From the NCBI RefSeq assembly GCF_003334765.1, contig NZ_QOWT01000082.1: DNA of 1,221 bases; one strand, given 5' to 3'. Source of the DNA: Escherichia coli. GTDB taxonomy: Bacteria; Pseudomonadota; Gammaproteobacteria; Enterobacterales; Enterobacteriaceae. The position numbers and the translations under genes are program-made. Shown one piece after another: positions 1 to 1,221 of this stretch (position 1 is the first letter of the stretch; each line of letters begins with the position of its first letter). Under the pieces are notes generated by a model. The model did not search any database and was not told the DNA's origin. It worked only from the letters and a program-made list of their open reading frames with translations.

Positions 1-26
1 TGTAGATTCAATCTGTCAATGCAACA
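1..26. repeat. Terminal inverted repeat, distal to transposase start (IRR in IS30 convention)
   Basis: Plus strand 1-26 TGTAGATTCAATCTGTCAATGCAACA compared with the reverse complement of 1196-1221, TGTAGATTCAATTGGTCAACGCAACA: 23/26 identical, mismatches at positions 13, 14 and 20 from the tip. The first 12 bp are perfectly conserved. Confidence 0.93.
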
Positions 27-1159
27 CCCCTTTCAATTATCTCTTTCGGTGTTTTGAACTTCAGTGTCTTTCTCGGTCTGTTGTTTAGCTGAGCAGCAAC
101 CAGATCTAGTTCATGTTGAGTATATTGGGCAAGACATGTCTTTTTAGGAAAGTACTGCCGAATTAGCCCATTTGTGTTCTCATTTGTTCCCCGCTGCCAA
201 GGACTCTGAGGATCGCAGAAGTAAACTTTAACGCCGGTGCTGACAGTAAATTCTAGATGTCTGGCCAGTTCCATTCCTCTGTCCCATGTCAGTGATTTTC
301 TGAGTTCTGACGGTAAACTCAGGAATTTGTCGGTAAGAGCCTGATTTACTGAGACAGAATCTTTGCCCCTGAGTCTAAGGATGATCGTATAACGTGATTT
401 TCGGTCTACAAGTGTGGCTATATGAGAGTTTTTTGTACCTGAGACTAAATCGCCCTCCCAATGCCCCAGAGAGCGTCTGTTATCGATATTTCGGGAACGT
501 TCGTGAATTGGTGTTCCGTTCACTATGTTAATCGTACCTCTTTCGCCTTTGCGGGTATGACGCCTGCCATGGCGAAGGCTATGCGACCGTCGCAGATGCT
601 GTATATTCAGGTGGTGTAGCGCTTCACGGCTACGAAAGTACAGCGTTTTATAAATTGTCTCAGGTGATATTCGCAGCGTTTTTTGACGTGGTTTTGTTCG
701 CCTTAACCATCCTGATATTTGCTCTGGAGACCATTTCATCTCCAGCTTTTCCAGAACAAGCTTTCGCAATGGTAAATTTTGATCCAGTAAGCACGGTTTT
801 GGCCTTTTCGCCATTCTGTTGGCTCGGTTATTAGCATCAACAGCTTTGTAATAGCGTCTGCCCCGATTACGCTGAACTTCACGTGAGATCGTCGAAGGAC
901 TGCGATTCAGCGCAGTAGCTATCGCACGAATGCTCATTTTGGCTGACAAACCAGCTCGTATCTCCTCGCGCTCAGACAGTGTCAGGTGAGCTACAGCCCG
1001 CTTATGCTCATGGGGTTTTATGCCGCCAGTATCCCTTAACATAGTGAAGATCGTTCCGGGTTTTGAACCCAGGATATTCGCTATTTCACTGAAGCCTGTT
1101 CCGTTCTTCCATAGTTCAAAAACAGAGGCTTTTTCCTCTGCTGTAAATGTTCGTCTCAT
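8..1159 (-). CDS. insI: IS30-family DDE transposase (InsI-like), 383 aa
   Basis: Seen in sequence: uninterrupted 383-codon ORF, ATG at 1157-1159 (minus) and TGA stop at 8-10 (minus) inside the inverted repeat. Very basic, Arg/Lys-rich protein. N-terminal helix-turn-helix-like segments (approx aa 20-45 GTGFSEIANILGSKPGTIFTMLRDTG, and aa 68-95 RAGLSAKMSIRAIATALNRSPSTISREV). Candidate catalytic residues by my residue count: D237 (HWEGD, codon 449-451), D293 (TWD, codon 281-283), E327 (TNE, codon 179-181). Spacing of 33 residues between the second D and E matches the DD(33)E signature of the IS30 family (established knowledge). The translation matches my recollection of E. coli InsI essentially throughout; not verified by search. 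Confidence 0.96.
   Translation of the reverse strand: MRRTFTAEEKASVFELWKNGTGFSEIANILGSKPGTIFTMLRDTGGIKPHEHKRAVAHLTLSEREEIRAGLSAKMSIRAIATALNRSPSTISREVQRNRGRRYYKAVDANNRANRMAKRPKPCLLDQNLPLRKLVLEKLEMKWSPEQISGWLRRTKPRQKTLRISPETIYKTLYFRSREALHHLNIQHLRRSHSLRHGRRHTRKGERGTINIVNGTPIHERSRNIDNRRSLGHWEGDLVSGTKNSHIATLVDRKSRYTIILRLRGKDSVSVNQALTDKFLSLPSELRKSLTWDRGMELARHLEFTVSTGVKVYFCDPQSPWQRGTNENTNGLIRQYFPKKTCLAQYTQHELDLVAAQLNNRPRKTLKFKTPKEIIERGVALTD
14..19 (-). promoter_or_regulatory. Outward-facing consensus -35 hexamer (TTGACA) inside the distal inverted repeat
   Basis: Plus strand tgtcaa at 14-19 = TTGACA on the minus strand, 13 bp from the element tip and directed out of the element. Established knowledge: IS30 forms a strong promoter when two ends are joined with a 2-bp spacer, with -35 in one inverted repeat and -10 in the other; such a -35 can also pair with a fortuitous flanking -10. 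Confidence 0.6.
179..451 (-). other. DDE catalytic core of transposase (D237-D293-E327 by my numbering)
   Basis: Codons read directly from the sequence: plus-strand atc 449-451 = GAT (D), gtc 281-283 = GAC (D), ctc 179-181 = GAG (E). Residue context HWEGD...TWD...(33 aa)...NE fits the DD(33)E pattern of the IS30 family. Confidence 0.75.
875..1102 (-). other. N-terminal DNA-binding region of transposase (two HTH-like motifs, approx aa 20-95)
   Basis: Inference from translated sequence: helix-turn-helix-like segments in the first ~100 residues. Established knowledge: IS30-family transposases carry N-terminal HTH DNA-binding domains. Boundaries are approximate. Confidence 0.6.
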
Positions 1160-1167
1160 TCAAAAAA

Positions 1168-1172
1168 CCTCC
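1168..1172 (-). promoter_or_regulatory. Shine-Dalgarno sequence (GGAGG) for the transposase
   Basis: Plus strand cctcc at 1168-1172 = GGAGG on the minus strand, separated from the ATG (1157-1159) by an 8-nt spacer TTTTTTGA. Confidence 0.8.
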
Positions 1173-1202
1173 GCAACCCCATGTTTTCACATAACTGTTG
1201 CG

Positions 1203-1208
1203 TTGACC
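1203..1208 (+). promoter_or_regulatory. Outward-facing -35-like hexamer (TTGACC, 5/6) inside the proximal inverted repeat
   Basis: Plus strand ttgacc at 1203-1208, 13 bp from the right tip, directed out of the element. It is the counterpart of the TTGACA in the other repeat, degraded by one of the three repeat mismatches. Confidence 0.35.
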
Positions 1209-1213
1209 AATTG

Positions 1214-1219
1214 AATCTA
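1214..1219 (-). promoter_or_regulatory. -10-like hexamer (TAGATT) at positions 3-8 of the proximal inverted repeat; -10 half of the predicted end-to-end junction promoter
   Basis: Minus strand reads TGTAGATT from the tip. If the distal end is abutted with a 2-bp spacer, TTGACA + 13 bp + 2 bp + TG gives a 17-bp spacer to TAGATT (4/6 match to TATAAT, with T1, A2 and T6 preserved). In the isolated element this hexamer has no -35 within the element. Confidence 0.45.
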
Positions 1220-1221
1220 CA

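Follow-up and report, generated by a model that had tools for sequence, protein, structure and literature searches.

A weak resident promoter, a junction promoter and a predicted leader fold-back at the left end of the insertion sequence IS30

The DNA analysed here (the window, 1221 bp of Escherichia coli sequence at its full length) is a complete IS30, and its left end very likely belongs to a circuit in which a weak resident promoter keeps transposase scarce, a junction promoter (Pjunc) arises in the transposition intermediate and transcription entering from outside is probably damped. The anatomy, matrix scores, conservation and predicted folding come from this analysis, the existence and strength of Pjunc from published papers; what we infer is which hexamers make up the resident promoter, where transcription starts and that translation is blocked.

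Results

Identity and layout of the element

The window carries the well-studied IS30 itself, with its left end at window 1157–1221. It lies on the reverse strand and matches, without any difference, annotated E. coli copies labelled ‘IS30-like element IS30 family transposase’; IS30 matches are present in 3825 of 5426 complete E. coli genomes, as thousands of copies. The encoded protein scores 277 bits against the NCBIfam model NF033563 transpos_IS30 (cut-off 80) and is a DDE transposase of the IS30 family. Its reading frame, the only one, nearly fills the element between imperfect terminal repeats that match at 23 of 26 positions, the layout of IS30-family elements with their repeats of 20–30 bp. 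The 26-bp repeats, the 383-residue transposase, an outward-facing -35 in the right repeat and a junction promoter with a 2-bp spacer are likewise those of IS30 of E. coli K-12. The main features are as follows, with element coordinates counted from the tip of the left repeat.

1..1221, minus strand (the transposase-sense strand): complete insertion sequence IS30, 100% identity over 1221 bp
8..1159, minus strand: transposase open reading frame, 383 aa, alias insI or ORF-A (from the list of open reading frames and the NCBIfam match)
1196..1221, minus strand: left terminal inverted repeat IRL, element 1–26, 26 nt, 88% complementary to window 1–26
1..26, minus strand: right terminal inverted repeat IRR, containing the transposase stop codon
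1157..1159, minus strand: transposase start codon ATG, element 63–65

Window positions 1157–1221 comprise IRL (26 bp), a 36-bp subterminal leader and the start codon; the 65-nt string discussed in an earlier, sequence-only reading is exactly the minus strand of this segment. The core of IRL, TGTAGATTCAA...GCAACA, is kept across relatives, and the leader length stays near 60–62 nt throughout the IS30 group, at 47–100% transposase identity. The window is without flanks, and single examples elsewhere show 2 bp at the ends of the element, namely AT on both sides of a mini-IS30 (L084) and an AC spacer in a fossil junction (L085). A scan of the window against Rfam at E ≤ 1 returned no known RNA family. 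A 13-nt perfect inverted repeat within the reading frame was rejected as a structure, as it decays in relatives without compensating changes.

The junction promoter

The promoter formed by abutted ends was rebuilt by setting the element’s last 40 nt, a 2-bp spacer and its first 40 nt end to end, and was scored with an approximate sigma-70 matrix of our own. Under this matrix the junction presents TTGACA-17-TAGATT at 14.66 bits, compared with 14.27 bits for lacUV5, 10.6 for lac P1 and 18.1 for the consensus, and 0.23% of shuffled junctions reach its score. Its halves lie at opposite ends of the element.

14..19, minus strand: TTGACA, perfect outward-facing -35 in IRR and -35 half of Pjunc (from the junction reconstruction)
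1214..1219, minus strand: TAGATT, -10 half of Pjunc at the IRL tip, element 3–8, without a -35 partner in the isolated copy

Spacers of 0, 1, 2 and 3 bp between the repeats gave 11.0, 12.9, 14.7 and 13.3 bits, respectively, so that the natural 2-bp spacer, which sets the hexamers 17 bp apart, is the best of those tried. An outward -35 in IRR, an inward -10 in IRL and a spacing in the functional range of 16–18 bp are the elements of a Pjunc, and the creation of this kind of promoter, one of the two routes to expression suggested by the sequence-only reading, is thus borne out. The rebuilt promoter is the published Pjunc of IS30, and its strength is taken from the papers: passages in PMC9333248 (citing Dalrymple 1987) call it strong, explain by it the extreme instability of IR–IR junctions facing ORF-A and attribute high transposase levels specifically to it, and a passage in PMC9330008, also citing Dalrymple 1987, lists IS30 among elements with promoters of this kind. 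Because the IS30 junction is nearly palindromic, a mirror promoter, TTGACC-17-TAGATT (12.8 bits), forms there as well.

All of the 16 nearest distinct relatives, which reach down to 68% protein identity, retain the junction promoter or a variant with one base changed in the -35. So do 18 of the 30 distinct elements at ≥63% identity; most relatives at 47–52% identity have lost it. Since the junction hexamers lie inside repeats that transposase binding also keeps conserved, this conservation is no proof of selection for promoter function.

Intact abutted IRR–IRL junctions were searched for in sequenced genomes, and none was found among 14,348 IS30 end matches in the 5426 complete E. coli genomes or among 2,988 end matches in plasmids, in line with the published instability of IR–IR junctions. 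The sole junction encountered, on a plasmid of Shigella dysenteriae, is a fossil that reads IRR, AC and the first 14 bp of IRL before an IS2 cuts off the second IS30 copy; it shows the same Pjunc arrangement. Other apparent junction matches were rejected, being a truncated IS30 and a mini-IS30 of 126 bp.

Ribosome-binding site and predicted leader fold-back

The transposase start codon is preceded by a Shine-Dalgarno sequence that is strong at the sequence level, as had been claimed earlier from GGAGG (element 50–54) with an 8-nt spacing to ATG, both of which are exact.

1167..1172, minus strand: Shine-Dalgarno GGAGGT, element 50–55, pairing with the anti-Shine-Dalgarno at the 3′ end of 16S rRNA at -10.2 kcal/mol

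Just 1.1% of the 20-nt windows of the element reach this pairing energy, and the Shine-Dalgarno core sits at the same place in 18 of 25 close relatives. In longer transcripts predicted RNA structure masks the Shine-Dalgarno partly or largely. A pairing of the Shine-Dalgarno with a downstream CCUCUG (element 94–99) was discarded as a candidate (z = -1.9, not kept in relatives). A leader transcript that begins upstream of the element is predicted to fold back from IRL onto its own translation start.

1158..1216, minus strand: predicted leader RNA fold-back, -19.5 kcal/mol, z = -3.2, four helices
Helix 1 (predicted): IRL 6–11 with 59–64, UUGAAU, which takes in the first two bases of AUG
Helix 2 (predicted): element 14–17 with 53–56
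Helix 3 (predicted): IRL 20–25 with 45–50, GUUGCG, which adjoins the Shine-Dalgarno
Apical stem (predicted): element 28–33 with 38–43

When 18 leaders are aligned without gaps, 81% of the cells of the helix set are paired, versus 36–46% when the partners are slid against each other. Column-wise covariation on the fixed alignment of leaders is weak, and RNAalifold, run on the 18 leaders, did not recover the fold-back and returned only a trivial 7-pair stem within IRL. The weakness of the column-wise signal is due in part to the outer stem, whose register differs by one between clades without loss of pairing, and register-free tests were therefore used. In 60 elements, opening the stretch from the Shine-Dalgarno to AUG costs on average 10.6 kcal/mol with the full IRL present, 6.9 kcal/mol with the upstream sequence shuffled and 4.3 kcal/mol in short transcripts; the cost lies above the shuffle mean in 53 of them. 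For IS30 itself the values are 10.3 kcal/mol against 5.9 ± 1.8 kcal/mol with shuffled upstream sequence, and 3% of the shuffles reach 10.3. A mean of 8.3 of the 17 bases between Shine-Dalgarno and AUG pair with IRL, compared with 3.4 when IRL is shuffled. Exchange of repeats between elements gave a similar picture across the group, as the cognate IRL occludes the start region more than the IRLs of relatives in 39 of 47 elements, by a mean of 2.0 kcal/mol; in IS30 itself, the cognate repeat performed no better than non-cognate ones in this swap (10.3 versus 10.0 kcal/mol). Family-wide, the end-proximal sequence is thus complementary to the Shine-Dalgarno and AUG beyond chance, as would be expected of an IS10/IS50-type arrangement, in counts over relatives that share ancestry and are not independent.

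We tentatively suggest, at somewhat less than even confidence and on the strength of these folding models, that IRL co-evolves with the Shine-Dalgarno-to-AUG segment across the IS30 group and that transcripts bearing IRL may hide their own ribosome-binding site behind a shield of the IS10/IS50 kind. The same complementarity could act in DNA, as an additional inverted transposase-binding site or a subterminal enhancer site. Szabo et al. reportedly found in 2008 that subterminal sequences beside IRL modulate IS30 transposition, which would suit such a role. Moreover, the complementary segment reproduces in inverted orientation the repeat core (GCAAC/GTTGC), the sequence that, according to a passage in PMC3299598, transposase binds. 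G-U wobbles, however, are frequent at the covarying pairs (20–50 is CG in 9 leaders and UG in 7; 21–49 is GC in 13 and GU in 5), which fits pairing in RNA and not a repeated DNA site, and the change of register between clades with pairing retained points the same way; we regard a purely DNA-level function as unlikely, though worth taking seriously. The fold-back is kept as a prediction because the relatives are not independent, because IS30’s own IRL fared no better than others in the swap and because of this possible role in DNA.

Read-in transcription

The sequence-only reading had proposed read-in transcription as its other route to transposase expression. If transcripts from neighbouring host genes were the major natural source of transposase, the strong Shine-Dalgarno would let them be translated as they enter, and two further observations are compatible with this: the consensus scan detected no terminator-like site from the IRL tip to ATG, and in about 2.7% of random flanks a -35 would be on hand with which the TAGATT of IRL makes a hybrid promoter scoring 10 bits or more. 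Against it stand the predicted pairing of IRL 6–11 with the AUG segment and of IRL 20–25 with the neighbour of the Shine-Dalgarno, the opening costs in excess of shuffled controls (53 of 60 relatives) and the advantage of cognate over non-cognate repeats (39 of 47), and we consider a major contribution of read-in improbable. Of the earlier interpretation, weak transcription and the junction promoter are therefore retained, whereas dependence on read-in is not, given that IRL-bearing transcripts are predicted to fold onto the Shine-Dalgarno and AUG. That interpretation also leaves out two controls which, according to excerpts of the published work, act on IS30, namely an antisense RNA driven by a central promoter and the binding of transposase over the promoter.

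The resident promoter

The earlier statement that the leader holds only poor -35/-10 pairs agrees with our scans. A consensus promoter and terminator scan gave no sites in the whole element, and the leader was consequently scored with the approximate matrix described above, promoter prediction by position weight matrix also having been proposed in the sequence-only reading. The best candidate between IRL and ATG reaches 7.25 bits, a value at chance level under this matrix (attained by 24% of dinucleotide shuffles) and far from the 14.3 bits of lacUV5. By all sequence measures, then, the resident promoter is weak. The pair given earlier as an example, TTCAAT and TATGTG, is exact in its positions and its 16-nt spacer and scores 1.8 bits.

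1210..1215, minus strand: TTCAAT, -35 of the earlier example, element 7–12, 1.8 bits together with TATGTG
1188..1193, minus strand: TATGTG, -10 of the earlier example, element 29–34, without the critical final T
1204..1210, minus strand: TTGGTC/TGGTCA, likelier resident -35, inside IRL, element 12–18, part of the best leader candidate
1181..1191, minus strand: TGTGAAAACAT, likelier resident -10 region, element 31–41, read as TGn plus GAAAAC (34–39) or TGn plus AAACAT (36–41)

A passage in PMC9783932, citing the IS30 sequence paper, puts the -35 of IS30 in the left repeat and assigns the -10 to a symmetrical internal sequence. The only palindrome at the right place is ATGTgaaaACAT (element 30–41), which holds both GAAAAC and AAACAT; each of these is preceded by TG in the extended -10 position and lies 16–18 bp from TTGGTC/TGGTCA. 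Among the relatives sampled (80, at 47–97% protein identity), many carry TAAAAT or TAAAAC at the position homologous to element 34–39, and one, L016, has TTGATC-16-TAAAAT there, at 12.1 bits. The region of the -10 is conserved although it is non-coding. From the cited placement together with the hexamers of the relatives, we infer that the resident promoter is most likely TTGGTC in IRL combined with a TG-extended GAAAAC or AAACAT, in a version that is degraded in IS30; the native transcription start would then fall at about element 46–48, judging from the candidate -10. The earlier pair is probably not the published promoter and probably a coincidence, even though the weakness that it was meant to illustrate holds. 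As described in a passage of PMC3299598 from work cited there, the footprint of a 17-kDa N-terminal transposase fragment overlaps the IS30 promoter, which agrees with a -35 inside IRL, and transposase on IRL probably represses it.

That the resident promoter might exceed its hexamer score, with help from the TG extension, from an UP-like element or from an activator or a different sigma factor, such that an isolated copy is not limited by transcription, is improbable: the TG ahead of both -10 readings, the 12.1-bit relative and the conserved non-coding region speak for it, but both readings match the -10 at 3 of 6 positions, GAAAAC is without the first and last T, the best score equals chance and the passage in PMC9333248 credits high transposase levels to Pjunc specifically.

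Discussion

In the circuit that we propose, an integrated single copy would have only a weak sigma-70 promoter at its disposal, with the -35 in IRL (TTGGTC) and a degenerate TG-extended -10 (GAAAAC/AAACAT). Owing to this weak promoter basal transposase synthesis would be low, and transposase bound at IRL would probably lower it further. Copy-out would abut IRR and IRL across a 2-bp gap, whether in a minicircle or in an (IS30)2 tandem dimer, and the joined halves, 17 bp apart, would make a promoter equal to lacUV5 by matrix score. A burst of transposase would thus be confined to the transposition intermediate, and integration would part the promoter halves again. Transcripts entering from outside would carry the whole IRL, which is predicted to fold onto the Shine-Dalgarno and AUG; as a consequence of this fold, read-in transcription would probably be damped and not exploited.

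The first part of this circuit resembles that of IS911, IS2 and IS3 of the IS3 family and of IS21, which likewise combine a weak resident pIRL with a strong pjunc that appears on circle or dimer formation. As outlined in a passage of PMC9330008, their shared logic is a -35 in IRR and a -10 in IRL that come together only once the ends abut in the intermediate and part upon integration. IS30 differs from the IS3-family elements and IS21 in its transposase family, in doing without frameshifting, in its 2-bp spacer and in its nearly palindromic junction with a mirror promoter.

The predicted part of the circuit has its counterpart in other elements. IS10 and IS50 are reportedly shielded from external promoters by a fold-back over the ribosome-binding site (Davis, Simons and Kleckner 1985; Krebs and Reznikoff 1986). 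In both of these and in IS30, sequence close to the end of the element complements the region of translation initiation, and both arms are present only in transcripts started outside, which for IS30 is a prediction. Unlike in IS10 and IS50, the fold-back of IS30 is a prediction only, and Pjunc transcripts, with a predicted start near element 15, would retain the arm 20–25. If the shield operates as modelled, it would spare resident-promoter transcripts altogether and Pjunc transcripts in part. As far as we found, such a shield against read-in is apparently undescribed for the IS30 family in the literature.

The weak resident promoter, the strong Shine-Dalgarno and the Pjunc arrangement are already described for IS30, the resident promoter and Pjunc reportedly by Dalrymple and Arber in 1985, by Dalrymple in 1987 and by Olasz, Kiss and co-workers. 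The left end read by itself thus re-derives the textbook circuit of a copy-out-paste-in element, in which resting copies hold transposase low and only the abutted-end intermediate turns it on. None of this is new for IS30, and at most the predicted fold-back across the family adds a little. If real, the fold-back would explain quiet IS30 copies inside transcribed genes and would furnish a simple annotation rule for IS30-family elements, namely that IRL complements the region of translation initiation.

Promoter-like sequences antisense to the transposase gene

The junction formed when IRR abuts IRL is almost palindromic, and a second, mirror promoter therefore arises there alongside the published Pjunc. 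As scored with an approximate sigma-70 matrix, this mirror sequence reaches 12.8 bits in the abutted junction, and transcription from it would run out of IRL into the right end of the adjacent copy, antisense to the transposase gene. Within the element, the same scoring places the top antisense-strand match at a candidate with a TG extension.

Window 1203-1208 combined with 3-8, plus strand: TTGACC-17-TAGATT, the mirror promoter of the abutted junction (12.8 bits)
Window 748-778, plus strand: antisense promoter candidate TTTCCA-19-TAAATT with TG extension (9.9 bits)

The latter candidate is distinct from the published IS30 antisense promoter, since that site lies at element positions 730-760, corresponding to window 462-492 (review PMC9330008).

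Junction and deletion remnants in other replicons

Two loci with matches to IS30 ends carry remnants of the element.

L085 1580-1613: fossil IS30 IR-IR junction, Shigella dysenteriae plasmid NZ_CP026830.1
L084 1501-1626: 126-bp IS30 with an internal deletion, E. coli K-12 AG100 (NZ_LN832404.1), in pgpC/yfhB

In the plasmid, an intact IS30 right end is followed by AC and the first 14 bp of the left end of a second IS30, which is interrupted at this point by an IS2 insertion. This fossil is the sole abutted IS30 junction in the complete E. coli genomes and the plasmids searched. The mini-IS30 of AG100 consists of the first ~88 bp of the element fused to its last ~38 bp; it interrupts pgpC and is bordered by AT on each side. 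It represents either a genuine deletion derivative or an assembly collapse.

Self-complementary sequences in the transposase reading frame

Two self-complementary features lie in the transposase ORF.

Window 1118-1142 (element 80-104), minus strand: predicted hairpin ACAGCAGAGG aaaaag CCUCUGU, then a U-run
Window 519-531 and 1036-1048: perfect 13-nt inverted repeat, arms 504 nt apart

The hairpin is located 18 nt inside the ORF and, with a predicted folding energy of -11.1 kcal/mol (z = -3.5), looks like a terminator or attenuator. A terminator scan of the IS30 window did not call it, because the G-U extension of the stem uses up the U-run. Among relatives the stem is less strong (61% of cells paired), and positions G84 and C95 of IS30 are mismatches in close relatives.

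About 0.01 inverted repeats of the 13-nt kind are expected by chance per 1.2 kb. The repeat probably reflects chance and coding constraint, as in relatives the complementarity of its arms decays from 13/13 to 5-10/13 with the amino acids unchanged, and no compensating changes occur among the relatives compared.

Sequences flanking IS30 relatives

Several relatives carry the same short sequence, for example GCCGC, in inverted orientation directly outside both element tips, and in some others a AAAAAGGC-like sequence is found outside both tips. Such inverted flanks, present at IS30-relative loci L001, L002, L011, L012, L014 and others, lengthen the apparent inverted repeat past the tips. This continuation outside the element suggests that these relatives inserted into palindromic target sites.
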